A stretch of 64,000 nucleotides of DNA from Bacteroidales bacterium (GTDB lineage Bacteria; Bacteroidota; Bacteroidia; Bacteroidales; FEN-979). The stretch covers positions 194 through 64,193 of the forward strand of contig DATJQF010000230.1 of the NCBI GenBank assembly GCA_035505995.1, read 5' to 3'. Every line of letters starts with the position of its first letter. The stretch's first letter is position 1. Made by a program: the position numbers and the translations under genes. Of this stretch, positions 2,610-43,458 are shown piece after piece. The notes below the pieces were generated by a model that saw nothing but the letters and a program-made list of their open reading frames with translations, had not been told where the DNA came from and made no database searches.

Positions 2610-4193
2610 CTATCCTCTCTCCTCCTTCTGCTCCAAACATAATATTTCCTCCACGATCTTCCGGTCGTTGGATAACCGGGGGACCTTGTACTGTGCTCCG
2701 AGCTTCCCTTTCGATTTAAGCCATTTGTAAAAAGTTTCCGTCGGCATGCTCCGGATCAGCGGCTCGCGGAGGATCAAATCGTGGTACCGCTTGGCTTCGT
2801 AATCGGAATTGACCGATTTCAGGGCCTGGTCCAGGAGCAGGGTGAACTGCGCCAGGTCCTGCGGCGGGGTGACGAACTCGATCAGCCATTCATGGGTGCC
2901 CTTTCGTTCCCCCTCCAGGTAAACCGGGGCCACGGTGTATTCCGAGACCACCGATTTCGTTTGTCCGCACGCGATCGCCAGCGCTTTTTCCGCATTATCG
3001 ATGATCAGTTCTTCCCCGAAGGCATTGATAAAATTCTTGGTCCGCCCGGTGATCTTGATCCGGTAAGGGTTTAGGGAAGTGAACTGGATCGTATCGCCGA
3101 TCATATACCGCCAGAGTCCCGCGTTGGTGGAGATGACGATCGCATAATTCTGGTTGAGCTCCACTTCATGCAGGAGCTTCGTCTTCGGATCCGCCGCTCC
3201 TACCTGGTCGAGCGGAAGGAACTCATAAAAGATCCCGTAATCGAGCATCAGCAGCATTTCTTCCTTCCCGTCCTGGTCCTGGATGCTGAAGAATCCCTCG
3301 GAAGCATTATAGGTTTCGAGGTAATGCACCTCCGGGGAAGGAAGGATCGCATGGAATTGCCTGCGGTAGGGATGAAAGCTCACCCCTCCGTGCATGAACA
3401 GTTCAAATTCCGGCCACACTTCCATGATATTGCTCTTGCCGGTGATCTCCAGGACTTTCTTGAACAAAAGCAGGGTCCAGGAAGGAACCCCGGATGCGCT
3501 GGTCACCCGGTGCCGGCTGGTCACCTCCGCCATCCTGCCGATCTTGCTTTCCCATTCCGACATCAGTGCTACCGACAGCCCGGGGGTTCTCCGCAATTCC
3601 ACCCATAAAGGCACATGGCGGATGATGATGGCGGAAAGGTCTCCCTCGTAAACGAAGGAGGCGGGACCGGTTTTCCGGACGATATAGCTGCCTCCCATGG
3701 AGATCCCCCTGCCGTCGAACAGGCGGCTGTCCGGGCGATTATGACAGTATATGGCAAGCAGGTCCCTGCCGCCTCTGTAATGGCAATCATTCAATGCTTC
3801 AACTGTGACCGGGATATACTTGCTCCGGTCGCCGGTAGTACCCGAGGATTTGGCAAACCATTTCACGGTCCCGGGCCACAGGATATTCCGTTCCCCTTTT
3901 CTCAGCCGGTCCACGAACGGCATGATGGATTCGTAATCGTTGATGGGCACCCGTTCCCGGAACGTGTCGGGACGATCGATGGAATTATATTCGAACCTTT
4001 TCCCCCACTCGGTATAGCGAGCCGTATGGATCAGCCGCCGGAACCAATCCAGCTGTACCTCATGGGGATACCGGAGGAACATTCCGATCTCCCTCATCCG
4101 CTGTTTCACCATCCAGGTGAGGAACGAGTTGACGACTGCCATAAATTCGAAGGATAATCCCTGAAATCTTTCGTAAAAATAATAATCTTCCAT
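2610..4193 (-). CDS. GH3 auxin-responsive-promoter family adenylating enzyme
   Basis: 527 aa with FAKSSGTTGDRSKYIPVT and the C-terminal QYKVPRL motif, typical of bacterial GH3 family proteins. Confidence 0.8.
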   Translation of the reverse strand: MEDYYFYERFQGLSFEFMAVVNSFLTWMVKQRMREIGMFLRYPHEVQLDWFRRLIHTARYTEWGKRFEYNSIDRPDTFRERVPINDYESIMPFVDRLRKGERNILWPGTVKWFAKSSGTTGDRSKYIPVTVEALNDCHYRGGRDLLAIYCHNRPDSRLFDGRGISMGGSYIVRKTGPASFVYEGDLSAIIIRHVPLWVELRRTPGLSVALMSEWESKIGRMAEVTSRHRVTSASGVPSWTLLLFKKVLEITGKSNIMEVWPEFELFMHGGVSFHPYRRQFHAILPSPEVHYLETYNASEGFFSIQDQDGKEEMLLMLDYGIFYEFLPLDQVGAADPKTKLLHEVELNQNYAIVISTNAGLWRYMIGDTIQFTSLNPYRIKITGRTKNFINAFGEELIIDNAEKALAIACGQTKSVVSEYTVAPVYLEGERKGTHEWLIEFVTPPQDLAQFTLLLDQALKSVNSDYEAKRYHDLILREPLIRSMPTETFYKWLKSKGKLGAQYKVPRLSNDRKIVEEILCLEQKEERG

Positions 4194-6323: not shown

Positions 6324-6331
6324 TAAATTTG
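6324..6331 (+). promoter_or_regulatory. -7 box TAAATTTG, Ig-like lipoprotein gene
   Basis: Exact motif 32 nt upstream of ATG 6364. Confidence 0.5.
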
Positions 6332-8442: not shown

Positions 8443-8450
8443 CAAATATA
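8443..8450 (-). promoter_or_regulatory. -7 box TATATTTG (minus strand), arsR-family gene
   Basis: Plus-strand CAAATATA; 33 nt upstream of ATG 8409. Confidence 0.5.
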
Positions 8451-8487: not shown

Positions 8488-10137
8488 TTAGCTTCCTTTT
8501 GCGAAAATCCCGGTTAATTTGAAGTTTTTTCCGTCGAACAACCCCCGGTCGCTCATTTTCAGTTCCGGGATGACGAGCAACGCCATAAAGGAAAGGGTCA
8601 TGAACGGGGCCCGCAGCGGGCTGCCCAGTTCCCGGGCTTTCCGGTCCAGGGAATCATAGGCTTCCGCCACTTTCAGGCCGTTTTCTCCCGACATGATCCC
8701 GGCAAAAGGCAACGGCAGGATCAGGTCCTCCCGGTCGCCGACCACCGAGATGCCTCCCCGCGTAGCGATGATAAGGTTGATCGCCCGGATCAGCGATACA
8801 TCCTCCGCCCCCACGGCGATGATATTATGGCTGTCGTGTGCAACCGAAGAGGCAATCGCTCCCTTTTTCAGTCCAAAGCCATGGATGAATCCCACGGCAG
8901 GCGGTGCATCCGTGTAACGATCCTTCACCACGATCTTCAGGATATCCTGCTCCGGTGATCCGCTGAGCTGTCCCTGCACTGAGGGCAGGACCGCCTCCGA
9001 TTCCCCGGTGACCAGCTGTCCGTCGAATGCACGGATCACCCTAACTGGTTTGCCTTTATCGGGAATGGCTATTTGCTCCGCAGTTACCGGGGAGGCATGA
9101 AAGATGTTTTTCGGCTCCTCCTTCACCTCTTCCAGCAAGGATTTTCCATTTTCAGCGACCTTAATTCCATTTATAAATACCGATTGAATATTGAACCCGG
9201 CCAGGTCATCCACCTGTATGAGATCGGCCGGATCCCCGGGTTGGAGCAGTCCTGCGCCCAGGGAATAATGTCGGACCGGATTCAGGGTGCAGGCACGGAG
9301 GACGTTCATGGTATCAAGTCCTCTGCCGATCGCCCGTTTCACGAGTTCGTTGATATGTCCGGTCCGGAGATCGTTCGGGTGCTTGTCGTCGGAACAAAGC
9401 ATGACGCTGTCCGGATATTCATCGATCAGGTCTGCCAGCGCCTCGAAATTCCTGGCGGCGCTCCCTTCCCGGATGAGGATCTTCATCCCGGCCCGGATCT
9501 TATCCAGGGCTTCCTCCCGGGTGAAGCATTCGTGGTCGGTGGTGATCCCCGCGGCGGCATACCGGGCGGCATCCTCTCCCCTCAATCCGGGTGCGTGCCC
9601 GTCGACCGGCTTTCCATATTTTCTCGCCAGGGCCAGCTTTCTCAACACGATCTCATCCTGGAAAAGCACCCCGGGAAAATTCATCATCTCCGACAAATAA
9701 TGGACCTCCTCCAGGCGCAGCAATTCCTCGACTTCTTCCGGTCCGATCACCGCGCCGGCTGTTTCGAAAGGAGTGGCCGGGACACATGACGGGGCCCCGA
9801 AATAGAACCGGAAAGGCACCTTTTTCCCGTTGGCGATCATGAACCGGACCCCATCGATCCCAAGGACATTCGCGATCTCATGCGGATCCGAAACGGTCGC
9901 CACCGTACCGTGCACCACCGCCATCCGGGCAAACCCGGAAGGGATCAGCATGGAGCTTTCGATGTGAATGTGCGCATCGATCAGGCCGGGAAGGATATAG
10001 CCGCTTTCCCGGGTCTCCTCTTCCCGGATCCCTGCGATCTTCCCCTGCTCAACCCGTACGGTCCCCCGGAAGATCCTCTTCCCGACCACATCCACGATAT
10101 GCCCGGATAGTTCGAAGGGGGCTGGATTATTGGTCAT
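8488..10137 (-). CDS. ade: adenine deaminase
   Basis: 549 aa with the PGLIDAHIHIESSM metal-binding motif and Ade-type architecture. The start ATG is the last unit of a heptamer array. Confidence 0.9.
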   Translation of the reverse strand: MTNNPAPFELSGHIVDVVGKRIFRGTVRVEQGKIAGIREEETRESGYILPGLIDAHIHIESSMLIPSGFARMAVVHGTVATVSDPHEIANVLGIDGVRFMIANGKKVPFRFYFGAPSCVPATPFETAGAVIGPEEVEELLRLEEVHYLSEMMNFPGVLFQDEIVLRKLALARKYGKPVDGHAPGLRGEDAARYAAAGITTDHECFTREEALDKIRAGMKILIREGSAARNFEALADLIDEYPDSVMLCSDDKHPNDLRTGHINELVKRAIGRGLDTMNVLRACTLNPVRHYSLGAGLLQPGDPADLIQVDDLAGFNIQSVFINGIKVAENGKSLLEEVKEEPKNIFHASPVTAEQIAIPDKGKPVRVIRAFDGQLVTGESEAVLPSVQGQLSGSPEQDILKIVVKDRYTDAPPAVGFIHGFGLKKGAIASSVAHDSHNIIAVGAEDVSLIRAINLIIATRGGISVVGDREDLILPLPFAGIMSGENGLKVAEAYDSLDRKARELGSPLRAPFMTLSFMALLVIPELKMSDRGLFDGKNFKLTGIFAKGS

Positions 10138-10179
10138 GGGTCATTGGTCATTAGTCATTGGTCATTGGTCATTGGTCAT
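10131..10179. repeat. heptanucleotide tandem array (TGGTCAT)x7; minus strand (ATGACCA)x7
   Basis: Units at 10131, 10138 (GGGTCAT), 10145, 10152 (TAGTCAT), 10159, 10166 and 10173. Contains the rlmN stop codon and the ade start codon. Confidence 0.95.
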
Positions 10180-11280
10180 TCTTAATCCGTAATCCGTAAT
10201 CCGTAATCCGTAATCCGTAATTACTTTCCCCGCCAGCTGTCCGCAGGCTGCATCAATATCCCCGCCCCTGCTTTTTCTCAAATTTACGACGAGATTCCTT
10301 CTTTCCAGCTCCCGCCGGAAAGCTTCAACCCTCAGGGGATCGGGCTTGCGGTACCCGGACCCTTCCACCGGGTTATATCCGATCAGGTTGATCTTGACCG
10401 GGAAGCTGCGGCAGAATGCTGCCAGTTCTTTCGCATCTTCAACGGAATCGTTGAATTCACGGAACAGGATGAATTCGATGGTGAATCGCTTCCCGGTAAC
10501 TTTATGATAATACTTCATGGCCTCCGAAAGGGACTCTACCGGGTATTTCCGGTTTACGGGCACGATCCGGTTCCTCTTTTCATTGTTGGCGGTATGAAGT
10601 GAAAGGGCGAAATGATACCGGGGCCGGTCATCCGCCATTTTACGGATCAGGTCAGGGATGCCGACACTGGAAACCGTGATCCGCTGCGGCGACATACCCA
10701 GCCCCCCGGGCGAAGTGATCTTCTCGATCGCCAGCTTCACCTGCTCATAGTTCAGCAGGGGTTCTCCCATTCCCATGAAGACGAGGTTGGACAAGGGGTT
10801 CGCTTCCGGCATGCGGGGACGGGCTTTCCCGGTCAGCCCTTCTTCCCCTGCCGAAAGACAGGACACCTGGTCGAAGATCTCTCCCGCGGTCAGGTTCCTC
10901 CGGAACCCTAACCGGCCCGTAGCGCAAAAGACGCATCCCAGCGGGCAGCCCGATTGCGACGAGATGCAGGCAGTATGCCGGGAGCCGGAAGGAATAAGCA
11001 CGCTTTCGGTCAGGTTCCCGTCGTCTGTCCGGAAAGCCACTTTTAAGGTGCCATCCCGGCTTTTCTGAATGTGTTCAGGATGTAAGGCAGGAAAACTAAA
11101 ATGATCGCCGAGCTCCCGGCGGATCTCTTTCGGCAGGTTGGTCATTTCGGAGAACGACCGCGCGGATTTTTTCCACAGCCATTCGGAAACCTGCCGGGCA
11201 TGAAAGCGGGGCTTATTCCTCGCGGAGAAAAAATCCCCGATCTCTTCAACGGTAACCTGCCGGATATCGGGCTTTACCAT
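10162..11280 (-). CDS. rlmN: 23S rRNA (adenine2503-C2)-methyltransferase, radical SAM
   Basis: CISSQSGCPLGCVFCATG radical-SAM cluster and DIDAACGQLAGKV near the C-terminus. The last ~20 codons (ITDYGLRITDYGLRMTNDQ) are encoded by tandem heptamers. Confidence 0.9.
   Translation of the reverse strand: MVKPDIRQVTVEEIGDFFSARNKPRFHARQVSEWLWKKSARSFSEMTNLPKEIRRELGDHFSFPALHPEHIQKSRDGTLKVAFRTDDGNLTESVLIPSGSRHTACISSQSGCPLGCVFCATGRLGFRRNLTAGEIFDQVSCLSAGEEGLTGKARPRMPEANPLSNLVFMGMGEPLLNYEQVKLAIEKITSPGGLGMSPQRITVSSVGIPDLIRKMADDRPRYHFALSLHTANNEKRNRIVPVNRKYPVESLSEAMKYYHKVTGKRFTIEFILFREFNDSVEDAKELAAFCRSFPVKINLIGYNPVEGSGYRKPDPLRVEAFRRELERRNLVVNLRKSRGGDIDAACGQLAGKVITDYGLRITDYGLRMTNDQ
10184..10218. repeat. heptanucleotide tandem array (AATCCGT)x5; minus strand (ACGGATT)x5
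   Basis: Five perfect units, translated as ITDYGLR ITDYGLR at the rlmN C-terminus. Separated by 4 nt from the first array. Confidence 0.95.
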
Positions 11281-14107: not shown

Positions 14108-14150
14108 AAAAAAAATGTCAGAATATTCTGACATTCTGACATTCTGCCTG
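14108..14150 (-). terminator. rho-independent terminator downstream of secG, built from ATTCTGAC octamer repeats
   Basis: Perfect 18-bp palindrome TGTCAGAATATTCTGACA (14116-14133) followed on the minus strand by T8 (14108-14115). Two more direct ATTCTGAC-like copies (to 14150) allow alternative hairpins. Confidence 0.6.
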
Positions 14151-15790: not shown

Positions 15791-16997
15791 ATTCCTTGAT
15801 CTTGCGGTAAAGCGTTCTTTCTGATATGCCCAGTTCTTTGGCCGCATCTTTTCTTTTTCCGTCGTATTTCTGAAGGGCTTTCCGGATAAAATCGATCTCC
15901 TTTTTCTCCAGGGAGAGGGATTCCTCCACTTCCTCATGTTCCGCGATCGGCTCCGGCGCCACTTTGTCGGAAGGAGCGACAATGACCGGGGCTTCCCGTT
16001 CGTTATCTTCTCCCATCCCTTTGTACAGGCGCTGGATCAGGTGGGTGTTTTCCGCCACCTTCGATTGGGAGATCTCGCTTTGCATCAGGTTCCCGACCAG
16101 TTGCTTCAGGTCGTTCACATCCTTCTTCATATCGAAAAGCACCTTGAAGAGCAGTTCCCTTTCCGTAAAATGACCCGGTTCACTTCCTTTGTACAGGACC
16201 GGGAGATCGGTCATGGGCCCCTGGGGCAGGTATTTCATCAGGGTATCGGCCGTGATGATCCGGTTCTTTTCGATGATGGAGATCTGTTCGGTAATGTTTT
16301 TCAGTTGCCGTACATTCCCGGGCCACCGGTAGGCGGTCAGGGTCTTTACGGCATCCTCATCCAGCTGGATCGGGGGCATCCGGTATTTTTCGGCCGCATC
16401 CGATGCAAATTTCCGGAACAGGAGATGGATATCTTCTTTCCGGTCGCGCAGGGGCGGGACGAAGATGGGAACGGTATTCAGCCGGTAGAACAGGTCCTGC
16501 CTGAATTTCCCCGCCGAGATGGCATCGGGGATGTTCAGGTTGGTGGCCCCTACGATCCTGACATTGGTCTTCAGCACTTTGGAAGAACCGACGCGGATGA
16601 ATTCCCCGCTCTCGAGTACCCGCAACAGCCTGACCTGCGTGGCAGCCGGCAATTCCGCCACCTCATCGAGGAAGATCGTACCCCCGTTCGCGACCTCGAA
16701 ATATCCTTTCCGGGCTTCGTGAGCGCCGGTGAAGGATCCCTTCTCATGTCCGAACAGCTCCGAGTCGATCGTCCCTTCGGGGATGGCGCCGCAGTTAACG
16801 GCGATGTAAGGGCCGTGCTTGCGGGAACTGAGCTGGTGAATGATCTTGGGAAAAAATTCCTTCCCCGTTCCGCTCTCCCCCGAAATCAGCACCGTGATGT
16901 CCGTGGCGGATACCTGCCGGGCAATATCGATCGCCCGGTCGAGCAGGGCGGAGGTACCGATAATTCCGAACCGTTGTTTGATCGCAAGGATATCCAT
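15777..16997 (-). CDS. sigma-54-dependent transcriptional activator (AAA+ plus Fis-type HTH, no sensor domain)
   Basis: ISGESGTGKE Walker A, GAFTGA-like ...EKGSFTGA..., the GTIFLDEV Walker B region and a C-terminal HTH ISERTLYRKIKEY. Only ~25 residues precede the AAA+ core. Confidence 0.85.
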   Translation of the reverse strand: MDILAIKQRFGIIGTSALLDRAIDIARQVSATDITVLISGESGTGKEFFPKIIHQLSSRKHGPYIAVNCGAIPEGTIDSELFGHEKGSFTGAHEARKGYFEVANGGTIFLDEVAELPAATQVRLLRVLESGEFIRVGSSKVLKTNVRIVGATNLNIPDAISAGKFRQDLFYRLNTVPIFVPPLRDRKEDIHLLFRKFASDAAEKYRMPPIQLDEDAVKTLTAYRWPGNVRQLKNITEQISIIEKNRIITADTLMKYLPQGPMTDLPVLYKGSEPGHFTERELLFKVLFDMKKDVNDLKQLVGNLMQSEISQSKVAENTHLIQRLYKGMGEDNEREAPVIVAPSDKVAPEPIAEHEEVEESLSLEKKEIDFIRKALQKYDGKRKDAAKELGISERTLYRKIKEYHIE

Positions 16998-17024: not shown

Positions 17025-18686
17025 TTATTTTTTACCTTCTTTCACTTCTCTTTTCAGCCTGGCCAGGTGACCTCTGCCCAGCGCTTTCACTTCGCAGCCC
17101 AGCTTGAAATATCTTCGGATCTGGGCATCGTTCAGGATGCCGAAAGCGTCGATCACGGCGATCGGGCCGCCGGCCCATTTCACGATCTCATCCGGATCCA
17201 GGTTCAGGTAAGGGGTATGGGGCACGGCAAGGATCAGGGCCTCCACCCCTTTCATCGCTTTTTTCAGGTCCTTCTGGACCACGATGCTTTTCAGCTGTTC
17301 CTGGTTCCTGAAGAAGCGTTTCCAGGAATGGCCCGGGGCGGGATATTCGTCCTGGTCCTCCAGTTCATACCAGTGATCCACATACGGGTCATGCACACTC
17401 ACCTCGGCGTTCATCTCCGTCAGTTTGCGGACGACCATTTCGCTTCCGCTGTACCGGGTATCCCCCACATCCTGGCGGTAGCTGGCCCCGCAAAGGAGCA
17501 CGCGCGCACCGGCAATATACCGGCCCATATTGCGCAGGGCATCACGGGTCAGTTCCGATACATGCAGTCCGCGGGTGTCATTGATATCGATGGCCGTTGG
17601 AGTAAGCTGGAAGATCTTGTCGCCATCCTCAAAACCCAGGATATGCTTGTAGGCCCAGTACCCGAGCCCGCCGTCCTTCGGCAGGCAATACCCTCCGATG
17701 CCCGGTCCCGGGAAGATCATGTTGCTGTGTGTCGGCCGCATCCGGATCGCCTGGATTACCTTGATCAGGTCCACCCCGTTGCGTTCGGCAAACAGGCTCC
17801 ATTCGTTAAGAAATGCCAGGATGGTGGCACGATATGAATTTTCCACGATCTTGGTGGTTTCCGATTCGATGGGACGGTCCATGACAGTCAACGGGTAATC
17901 GCGGGTGTTCAGTACTTCGTGAAGGAATTTTTCCACCCGCTTGCGGGCTATCTCTTCGCATCCTGAACAAACCCTCCAGAAATCGCGGATGCTGGCCACG
18001 TATTGCTTTCCGGGCATCACGCGCTCGAAGCTGTGTGCCAGCAACGGGGTCTTCCGGAGGCCGCGCTTCTGGAACTCCTTTTTCAGGATCGGCCAGGCGA
18101 CAAATTCCGTGGTGCCCGGCGCCACGGTGGTCTCGATCAGGACCAGGCACGACGGGTTGATCTTTTCCCCGATGGTCCGCATCGTTTCTTCCAGGGCTAC
18201 AATATCGGCGGATCCGGTCCGCATGTTCCCGAGGTCCTTCTTGGCAAAATCACACTGGACATCCACCACCACGCAATCGGCAAATTTCAGGCAATCGCTG
18301 TTGAAGGTGGCCACCAGGGTTTTTTCTTTCTTCACGCAACGGTCGATCAGGATGTCCACTTCAGGGTCTTCCGCTTTCACCGGTGATTCTCCGCGGTTCA
18401 CCATCGGGATCTTCCAGTAACTCCGCGGGCTGGGGCGCTGGCAGCCGATGACCAGCTTGGAATAATTTCCTTTTTTATCCCGGGTATCCGCCACGATCGC
18501 CGCCATGACTGCGCCAACGAATCCCAGTCCCATCACCACCACGATCTCTTTCTTTTCGCGGCGGGCTTTGGTGACGAGCAATTCAAGCCTTTTCATTTCT
18601 TTTTCATAATCCGCCTTTTGCGGAAGCGGAAACTTCTCCCCGAAAGGATTTACCGAGTAATTTACCGGATCGTTCTTCGCCATCAT
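17025..18686 (-). CDS. nucleotide-sugar dehydrogenase family protein (UDP-glucose/GDP-mannose dehydrogenase fold), unusually long
   Basis: 553 aa with a Rossmann motif VVVMGLGFVGAVMA after a ~45-aa N-terminal extension, and a C-terminal domain LLCGASYRQDVGDTRYS. Confidence 0.75.
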   Translation of the reverse strand: MMAKNDPVNYSVNPFGEKFPLPQKADYEKEMKRLELLVTKARREKKEIVVVMGLGFVGAVMAAIVADTRDKKGNYSKLVIGCQRPSPRSYWKIPMVNRGESPVKAEDPEVDILIDRCVKKEKTLVATFNSDCLKFADCVVVDVQCDFAKKDLGNMRTGSADIVALEETMRTIGEKINPSCLVLIETTVAPGTTEFVAWPILKKEFQKRGLRKTPLLAHSFERVMPGKQYVASIRDFWRVCSGCEEIARKRVEKFLHEVLNTRDYPLTVMDRPIESETTKIVENSYRATILAFLNEWSLFAERNGVDLIKVIQAIRMRPTHSNMIFPGPGIGGYCLPKDGGLGYWAYKHILGFEDGDKIFQLTPTAIDINDTRGLHVSELTRDALRNMGRYIAGARVLLCGASYRQDVGDTRYSGSEMVVRKLTEMNAEVSVHDPYVDHWYELEDQDEYPAPGHSWKRFFRNQEQLKSIVVQKDLKKAMKGVEALILAVPHTPYLNLDPDEIVKWAGGPIAVIDAFGILNDAQIRRYFKLGCEVKALGRGHLARLKREVKEGKK

Positions 18687-43402: not shown

Positions 43403-43458
43403 AACCCTAAACCCTAAACCCTAAACTCTAAACCCTAAACCCCAAACCACCAACCACC
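43403..43458. repeat. heptanucleotide tandem array (AACCCTA)x8 with degenerate 3' units; telomere-like
   Basis: AACCCTA x3, AACTCTA, AACCCTA, AACCCCA, AACCACC x2. Ends 4 nt before the fabD ATG. The plus strand has no G from 43403 to 43464. Confidence 0.95.

Follow-up and report, generated by a model that had tools for sequence, protein, structure and literature searches.

Paired heptanucleotide arrays at the rlmN-ade junction of a Bacteroidales genome are probably tolerated products of repeat slippage

We analyzed two abutting arrays of tandem 7-nt units that occupy the junction between the genes rlmN and ade in a 64-kb stretch of DNA from a Bacteroidales metagenome-assembled genome (MAG), a stretch referred to here as the window. 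One of them, array B (unit ACGGATT on the coding strand), is translated as the tail of a protein, and the other, array A (unit ATGACCA), supplies the stop codon of one gene and the start codon of the next. Both are heptanucleotide simple sequence repeats (SSRs) of the class described as short tandemly repeated repetitive (STRR) sequences or "long SSRs", because they consist of tandem 7-nt units beyond chance expectation, the excess is specific to period 7, they sit in a gene junction or spacer, and the unit of array A is that of GACCAAT and TTGGTCA (the three share one canonical form by rotation or complement). The class has already been described, and the rlmN-ade locus by itself reveals no new kind of element. 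The explanation that we favor, and hold to be probable, is that slippage generated these heptamer repeats, that the host tolerates them, and that their effect on ade, if any, is one of tuning. The chain of overlapping stop and start codons within array A is a by-product of its unit sequence, and we found no evidence of a dedicated switch.

Tandem Repeats Finder and direct parsing reproduced every coordinate, unit and spacer reported for the two arrays in a first-pass annotation of the window. The program assigned a period of 7 to positions 10129-10180 for array A (7.4 copies, 91% matches, score 90) and 10183-10221 for array B (5.6 copies, 100% matches, score 78). On the plus strand, array A runs in order TGGTCAT, GGGTCAT (at 10138), TGGTCAT, TAGTCAT (at 10152) and three more copies of TGGTCAT, and its two variant units leave a longest perfect run of 27 nt. 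Shuffles of the window led us to expect only about 0.1 exact period-7 runs of such length. The window contains three heptamer arrays with three different units and, at periods of 5, 6, 8 and 9, no array of at least three perfect units; long period-7 arrays occur in it at 47 per Mb, versus 8 per Mb across 0.5 Mb of other Bacteroidota loci.

The repeat block (10131-10218) codes for the final 19 codons and the stop of rlmN plus the start codon of ade, in agreement with the claim that the arrays form the whole junction. The last unit of array A holds the only plausible ade ATG. This start is credible because the N-terminus it predicts, seven residues ahead of the conserved FE[LI]SG motif, matches two orthologs (L002 and L003) in length, and because the conserved residues have no alternative start codon upstream. 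The RlmN protein, identical to NCBI HTX89272.1 ("MAG TPA: Bacteroidales bacterium"), ends in ...AGKVITDYGLRITDYGLRMTNDQ*. Comparison of 121 homologs confirmed the suggestion that the conserved protein ends near ...ACGQLAGKV: conservation stops at ...CGQLAGK, the homologs carry a median of 9 aa past CGQL (range 3-37), and a period-7 tail is found in this protein only. Array B is free of stop codons in every sense frame and is read as (ITDYGLR)n. Each ATGACCA unit of array A contains one ATG and one TGA and thus provides starts and stops in every frame. The stop of rlmN and the ATG of ade are 24 nt apart and do not overlap, so that the two genes are linked only via the short open reading frames (mini-ORFs) of array A (Table 1). 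A scan of the whole window against Rfam at gathering thresholds returned zero RNA families. We also considered the footprint of a mobile element and ruled it out; there are neither flanking inverted repeats nor a transposase, and relatives align across the site.

Table 1. Features of the rlmN-ade junction and of the sister array in the window.
Feature	Coordinates	Strand	Description
array A	10131..10179	-	coding strand (ATGACCA)x7; variants ATGACCC (unit 7, holds the ade ATG) and ATGACTA (unit 4)
spacer	10180..10183	-	4 nt, AAGA (plus strand TCTT); gives TAA in one frame with the last T of array B
array B	10184..10218	-	(ACGGATT)x5; plus strand AATCCGT x5
rlmN	10162..11280	-	372 aa; Radical_SAM and RlmN_N; 23S rRNA A2503 methyltransferase
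RlmN repeat-encoded C-terminal extension	10162..10221	-	ITDYGLRITDYGLRMTNDQ plus stop, after CGQLAGKV; no counterpart in 119 other homologs
ade	8488..10137	-	adenine deaminase, 549 aa; Amidohydro_1 and Adenine_deam_C; ATG is that of the last unit of array A
mini-ORFs	10127..10179	-	6 upstream ATGs, 4-5 codons each, two interleaved chains
sister array (AACCCTA)x6.6	43403..43448	+	occupies the greater part of the 68 nt separating a Bax1-I-family gene from fabD; its end is 14 nt ahead of the fabD ATG
TAnnTTTG match, TAAATTTG	10279..10286	-	within rlmN at its 3' end; the ade ATG follows about 142 nt downstream

Comparison of the junction across relatives shows an in situ expansion at an ancestral, ordinary stop/start overlap, because close relatives have overlapping junctions free of arrays and because collapsing the arrays restores both the overlap and a tail of 9 aa. 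Adjacency of rlmN and ade is confined to a small clade; a metagenome scan with Ade recovered only relatives of at most 65% identity, and rlmN adjoins ade in 4 of the 80 loci, plus L001-L003. In L003 (RlmN 72% identical) the TGA of rlmN overlaps an ade ATG as ATGA (-4), in L002 (73% identical) the two genes overlap by 26 nt, and neither junction has arrays. The rlmN-ade spacers of L209 (24 nt) and L210 (142 nt) likewise lack arrays A and B; that of L209 holds a 2.4-copy TTACCTG/TAACCTG micro-repeat. In the alignment, the arrays are an insertion relative to all relatives, placed directly 5' of a common TAATGAC motif. When the junction is collapsed to no unit of array B and two of array A (nB = 0, nA = 2), the tail becomes AGKVIKNDQ, whose 9 aa equal the family median, and rlmN meets the ade ATG in an ATGA overlap. 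This -4 overlap is the most frequent spacing between co-directional genes in the window (5 of 31 gaps). The junction of L003, ...TTAATGTCCTTAATGACCCTAATGACAAATGATAATG, is a period-9 micro-repeat (TTAATGACC)x2.9 at 1595-1620 that has an AATGACC core in common with array A, and a micro-repeat of this type may have seeded the array. Relatives with and without arrays keep the synteny DUF4468-rlmN-ade-arsR.

In two of these relatives ade was called as two ORFs, of 292 and 207 aa in L209 (9167-11645) and of 299 and 262 aa in L210 (10001-11639), and rlmN is truncated in L209. The split and truncated genes may be frameshift errors of long-read or old assemblies and not real pseudogenes.

The first-pass annotation had read array A as a candidate phase-variable translational coupler, in which three consecutive termination-reinitiation events could pass ribosomes from rlmN to ade and the gain or loss of one unit would break the register. 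The mini-ORFs and their stop/start overlaps are all present as traced. The ATG at 10165 opens MTND, which stops at the TAA at 10153-10151; the ATG at 10151 opens MTNDP, whose TGA (10136-10134) overlaps the ade ATG (10137-10135). Units 1, 3 and 5 thus form a chain that leads to the ade ATG, and units 2, 4 and 6 a second one that leads to a TAA at 10129-10127. Any tandem repeat of ATGACCA generates such chains: an in-frame TGA lies 15 nt past each ATG (ATG ACC AAT GAC CAA TGA) and overlaps the ATG two units on, and, 7 and 3 being coprime, each of the three frames shows the pattern. The relay is the arithmetic of the unit and therefore not an independent design feature.

We also rebuilt the junction in silico from perfect units (nB = 0-9, nA = 1-10). 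One third of the combinations bring the chain exactly to the ade ATG, in another third it finishes at a TAA 8 nt beyond the A of that ATG, and in the remaining third (nB = 1 mod 3) rlmN stops at the spacer TAA, upstream of array A. Because one third of the copy-number combinations give register, the in-register state that we observe is unremarkable, its prior being about one third. Adding or removing one unit in array B alters both the RlmN tail and the register, as had been predicted; the same change in array A leaves the tail as it is and shifts the last stop to the position 8 nt beyond the A of the ade ATG, and neither change breaks an ORF. Across the rebuilt junctions, rlmN and ade both remain intact with the sole exception of nA = 1 combined with nB = 2 mod 3, which fuses them. 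By reading frame, then, copy number would not switch either gene on or off outside this one class of combinations.

Phase variation was the other part of the original proposal, and unit number does change at a different array. The sister array upstream of fabD was located in three further assemblies (L204, 3739-3799; L205, 1629-1703; L206, 740-814). The Bax1-I-family protein encoded upstream of fabD has an identical sequence on the ENA, Logan and JGI contigs, each of which is at least 99% identical to the window. Relative to the window, the ENA contig has one unit fewer and the Logan and JGI contigs one unit more, giving three alleles in four assemblies, and this 7-nt step is the sole gap in up to 6.7 kb aligned. 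Heptamer arrays of the species thus slip on a strain-level timescale. The focal arrays, which could be compared in two assemblies, show no difference in unit number: an independent ENA contig of the same species (L001) aligns to the window with 99.64% identity over 2786 nt, 10 SNPs and 0 gaps, and its arrays are identical, both variant units included. Look-ups for further strains returned no match for the exact Ade sequence, the same L001 contig for RlmN, and, for the DUF4468 neighbor, contigs from JGI and Logan that belong to the species but end short of the junction. Protein searches with the C-terminal 143 aa of RlmN and the N-terminal 200 aa of Ade found no near-identical fragment (best identities 69% and 75%).

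The fabD unit, AACCCTA, is of the plant-telomere type (the complement of TTTAGGG). We rejected a telomere-related origin, as the array sits between bacterial genes. The only other notable exact tandem repeat in the window is a perfect octamer repeat, (ATTCTGAC)x2.75, at 14125-14146.

To place array A in a wider context, we scanned species-representative genomes for (ATGACCA)4 and retrieved 8 kb around each locus (L004-L123). At least 120 loci were found, at least 70 of them in cyanobacteria (mostly filamentous), at least 28 in Planctomycetota, at least 9 in Bacteroidota and a few in other phyla. The counts that follow apply to the matches listed. The same 8-kb loci hold 148 additional heptamer arrays with other units, and 116 of 132 arrays in other genomes are intergenic according to crude ORF calls made with the arrays unmasked. 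For orientation we masked the arrays, because an unmasked antisense array, open in all frames, merges into false ORFs and the ATGs of arrays are mistaken for start codons; gene calls in the foreign loci were again crude ORF calls. Where ATGACCA arrays lie between co-directional genes, 42 are in sense and 20 in antisense orientation (p = 0.007). Of the others, 23 are flanked by convergent genes and 11 by divergent ones, so that 43 of the 96 classifiable arrays are antisense or convergent, positions in which a sense-strand relay cannot, therefore, operate.

ACGGATT and AACCCTA form no arrays in about 200 foreign loci, and ACGGATT recurs only in L001. Among the Bacteroidota matches listed, no more than about 35 nt separates the end of a sense ATGACCA array from a downstream start in L008, L029 (two arrays), L065 and L094, as in the window, and several other arrays have no sense ORF nearby. 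The array of L008 has 33 units and ends 6 nt ahead of an ATG. In a Bacteroidales MAG (L094), the TAA of the upstream gene overlaps the first ATG of the array, and the downstream start is at most 20 nt from the array end. A Chitinophaga MAG (L029) has a two-unit junction like that of rlmN-ade, in which (CCACTGC)5 abuts (CCAATGA)4 and both fill one co-directional junction; the next junction downstream holds (CCAATGA)7. These arrays, at 1749-1808 and 2963-3020, bracket one member of a three-gene co-directional run. Closer to the window, the L209 relative (Ade N-terminus 74% identical; 2.89-Mb contig) carries three heptamer arrays with other units in 21 kb (15918-15942, 16013-16044 and 17200-17221), and one of its arrays, (TTTTAAT)3.1, stops 4 nt before the start codon of an aminotransferase gene.

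The RNA of the junction is predicted to be open. Minimum free energies of the sense strands are -1.2 kcal/mol for (AUGACCA)7, -2.7 for (ACGGAUU)5 and 0.0 for (AACCCUA)7, and the junction as a whole is less structured than its shuffles (z = +2.0), with a fully open centroid. The antisense strand (UGGUCAU)7 has a predicted fold of -11.1 kcal/mol, and avoidance of this folding is a possible reason for the 42:20 sense bias. Initiation in Bacteroidia blind to the Shine-Dalgarno (SD) sequence is set by mRNA structure and upstream nucleotides, and AUG is depleted close to starts (PMC6847099). Leaders in the window fit this description: they are rich in A (33%) and poor in G (19%), an SD-like motif precedes 5 of 49 genes, and in positions -45 to -1 of the other 48 genes (at least 150 aa each) the mean number of AUGs is 0.40 per 43 positions versus 0.72 expected. 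With 6 AUGs in the same interval, the ade leader is a strong outlier.

A scan of 9700-10700 detected neither an intrinsic terminator nor a sigma-70 promoter between rlmN and ade, the latter with a promoter tool that includes no Bacteroidota promoters. The window has 30 matches, versus 20 expected, to TAnnTTTG, the Bacteroidota -7 promoter motif. The match within the 3' end of rlmN (Table 1) has no TTTG at about -33, and the motif is missing at the same position in L002 and L003. We regard it as an uncertain candidate for an internal ade promoter; if it were one, arrays A and B would sit in the 5' untranslated region (UTR) of ade. Similar TAnnTTTG-type motifs occur just upstream of neighboring genes, at 6324-6331 (plus strand) and 8443-8450 (minus strand).

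These observations suggest how tolerated heptamer repeats could have reached their present form. Replication slippage would have expanded both arrays at the formerly overlapping stop of rlmN and start of ade. Array B would be translated as a periodic extension to the unconserved tail of RlmN, and array A would end RlmN within at most 18 nt in any incoming frame and, at any copy number, place an AUG ahead of the native ade codons. The arrays may persist through this frame-robustness and the near-zero structure of the sense RNA. The two genes are presumably co-transcribed, and Ade would be made from the last AUG, either by de novo loading of ribosomes on the unstructured, SD-less leader or by re-initiation after rlmN or a mini-ORF. 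The six decoy AUGs would probably divert some initiations, and copy number would drift in 7-nt steps. Copy number may tune the output of ade, probably lowering it, with no on/off switch.

Several points weigh against mere tolerance. Two strains with different fabD arrays share the same focal arrays, down to both variant units, which could hint at constraint (n = 2). The ade leader is AUG-rich where AUG is normally depleted, and one might expect a purely neutral array to have been purged. A sequence-specific function could lie behind the 42:20 sense bias and the reappearance of one unit in several phyla, and the orientation counts themselves depend on crude gene calls in the foreign loci.

One alternative is a functional leader, in which the arrays serve as a ribosome standby or landing site, or as the target of a protein that binds single-stranded RNA, and so set downstream translation in a host that ignores SD sequences. 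We consider this possible but rather unlikely. Two of the three arrays of the window lie near starts (ade and fabD), the five Bacteroidota loci with a sense array close to a start and the sense bias among the matches listed point the same way, the sense RNA is predicted to be unstructured, and ATGACCA and AACCCTA match in composition the A-rich, G-poor leaders of the genome. Against it stand the 23 convergent and 20 antisense arrays, the Bacteroidota arrays without a nearby sense ORF, the unrelated units inside one genome, the relatives that have the gene pair without arrays, and the extra AUGs, which run contrary to the AUG depletion of Bacteroidetes leaders. We know of no binding partner for heptamer arrays. 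Roles for heptamers near starts have been proposed before (PMC4679880; bioRxiv 10.1101/2022.06.06.494920). A bolder reading sees ATGACCA arrays as self-contained, frame-independent stop-and-restart cassettes, selected as such across phyla. With the UGA and AUG of every unit joined in an AUGA overlap, an array would stop ribosomes arriving in any frame and pass them on stepwise to the next gene, and in SD-blind Bacteroidia and other lineages its copy number and parity would tune the share of upstream ribosome flux that arrives there. If true, it would explain the recurrence of ATGACCA in Cyanobacteria, Planctomycetota and Bacteroidota and its 2:1 sense preference beyond what shared ancestry or slippage bias could account for, but we assign it a low probability.

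We likewise judge the phase-variable coupler improbable. The traced chain of overlapping stops and starts does exist, the ancestral stop/start overlap makes coupling of rlmN and ade plausible, single-unit variation occurs at the fabD array of the species, AUG-rich leaders are otherwise avoided, so that re-initiation might matter, and a heptamer SSR in the 5' UTR controls hmw1A of Haemophilus influenzae (PMC12721329). The chain is, however, forced by the unit and in register in one third of combinations, and even the off-register stop, which is 8 nt away from the A in the ade start codon, may be near enough for re-initiation. In addition, the focal arrays are invariant in two assemblies, two variant units interrupt array A, whose longest perfect run is 27 nt, ATGACCA is often placed where no relay is possible, and ade is a housekeeping purine-salvage gene, atypical for contingency. 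The products of the genes involved (RlmN, adenine deaminase and that of fabD) fall outside the surface, antigenic, restriction-modification and other niche-contingent functions. A role at the DNA level, as a protein-binding array or a hot spot of recombination or rearrangement with only incidental effects on mRNA, seems very improbable to us. Arrays do occur in all orientations, convergent spacers included, deletion of the recO array in Nostoc altered regulation by LexA and NtcA (bioRxiv 10.1101/2022.06.06.494920), and MacGregor suggested a rearrangement role for the long arrays of Gramella and Aequorivita (PMC4679880). The synteny of the junction is conserved with or without arrays, however, three unrelated units within 64 kb speak against one binding protein, and the junction overlaps in relatives, so that no promoter is required there. 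Finally, as the source is a MAG, the arrays could be an assembly or sequencing artefact, a point that had been raised for assembly errors. This explanation is exceedingly improbable: the independent ENA assembly carries identical arrays despite its 10 SNPs, the flanking ORFs are intact, and a k-mer of 141, which the contig names (k141_...) suggest, exceeds the 88 nt of the repeat block.

The rlmN-ade junction, its array-free relatives and the strain-variable sister array together make a convenient test bed in which to separate neutral slippage from translation tuning or coupling without SD sequences. To our knowledge, bacterial heptamer repeats have no established function, a question that dates back to 1990.

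The nearest known systems are the heptamers of cyanobacteria and the TAACTGA family, and they contradict the statement in the first-pass annotation that no element of this kind had been described. TTGGTCA, the canonical equivalent of the array A unit, is reportedly the STRR2 repeat of the 1990 study by Mazel and colleagues; a literature search for TTGGTCA/STRR2 returned only unrelated matches to primers or gene names. Three tandem heptanucleotides were described in Calothrix (Mazel et al., 1990, as cited in PMC4692102). In Nostoc PCC 7120, GAC(C/T)AAT x8 overlaps the recO start codon, and the unit lies at most 30 nt from the start in at least 13 genes and overlaps it in 4; in recO reporters, removal of the array changed regulation by both LexA and NtcA (bioRxiv 10.1101/2022.06.06.494920). 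The unit of array A is identical to that of these cyanobacterial repeats. The host here is a Bacteroidales MAG, however, the array occupies an operon junction instead of a site downstream of a promoter, and it also terminates the upstream gene and abuts a second, translated array.

TAACTGA repeats of Beggiatoaceae, Cyanobacteria and some Bacteroidetes lie mostly a few nucleotides upstream of start codons, abutting heptamers included, without an SD sequence or predicted RNA structure; they form mixed heptamer arrays and differ by 7-nt indels between strains (MacGregor, 2015, PMC4679880). The forward repeat has stops in every frame, so that it overlaps coding-sequence ends by at most 18 nt, and a single-strand RNA-binding protein (S1, cold-shock or CsrA-like) was proposed to recognize it (PMC4679880). 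The architecture is common to both systems, and rlmN overlaps array A by exactly 18 nt. The units are not: ATGACCA, ACGGATT and AACCCTA all differ in canonical form from TAACTGA, which has no ATG and thus provides neither the start codons nor the mini-ORFs of array A. Array B is translated, and a translated companion array is undescribed for TAACTGA.

Like the (ATCTTTC)n tracts of H. influenzae hmw1A and hmw2A, in which copy number in the 5' UTR modulates the expression of a surface adhesin through a long hairpin and RNase III cleavage at 11 units or more (PMC12721329), array A is a heptanucleotide SSR upstream of a start codon. It differs in its predicted lack of sense RNA structure, its 7 + 5 units and the housekeeping nature of the gene. 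Classical coupling through ATGA or TAATG is the arrangement of rlmN-ade in L003 (ATGA) and, with its 26-nt overlap, in L002. Each hop of the proposed relay would be such a classical overlap, although 24 nt separate the rlmN stop itself from the ade ATG downstream. We know of no demonstration of serial re-initiation via repeat-encoded mini-ORFs. At the broadest level, heptanucleotide units are the most abundant class among the long SSRs of prokaryotes (Mrazek et al., 2007, as cited in PMC4679880 and PMC4692102). As these sources present the class, the arrays of the window resemble it in their period-7-specific excess, patchy phylogeny and intergenic preference, and in polymerase slippage as the proposed origin. 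Long SSRs, in the same account, are a statistical class without a functional definition, to which the rlmN-ade case adds a specific gene-junction anatomy.

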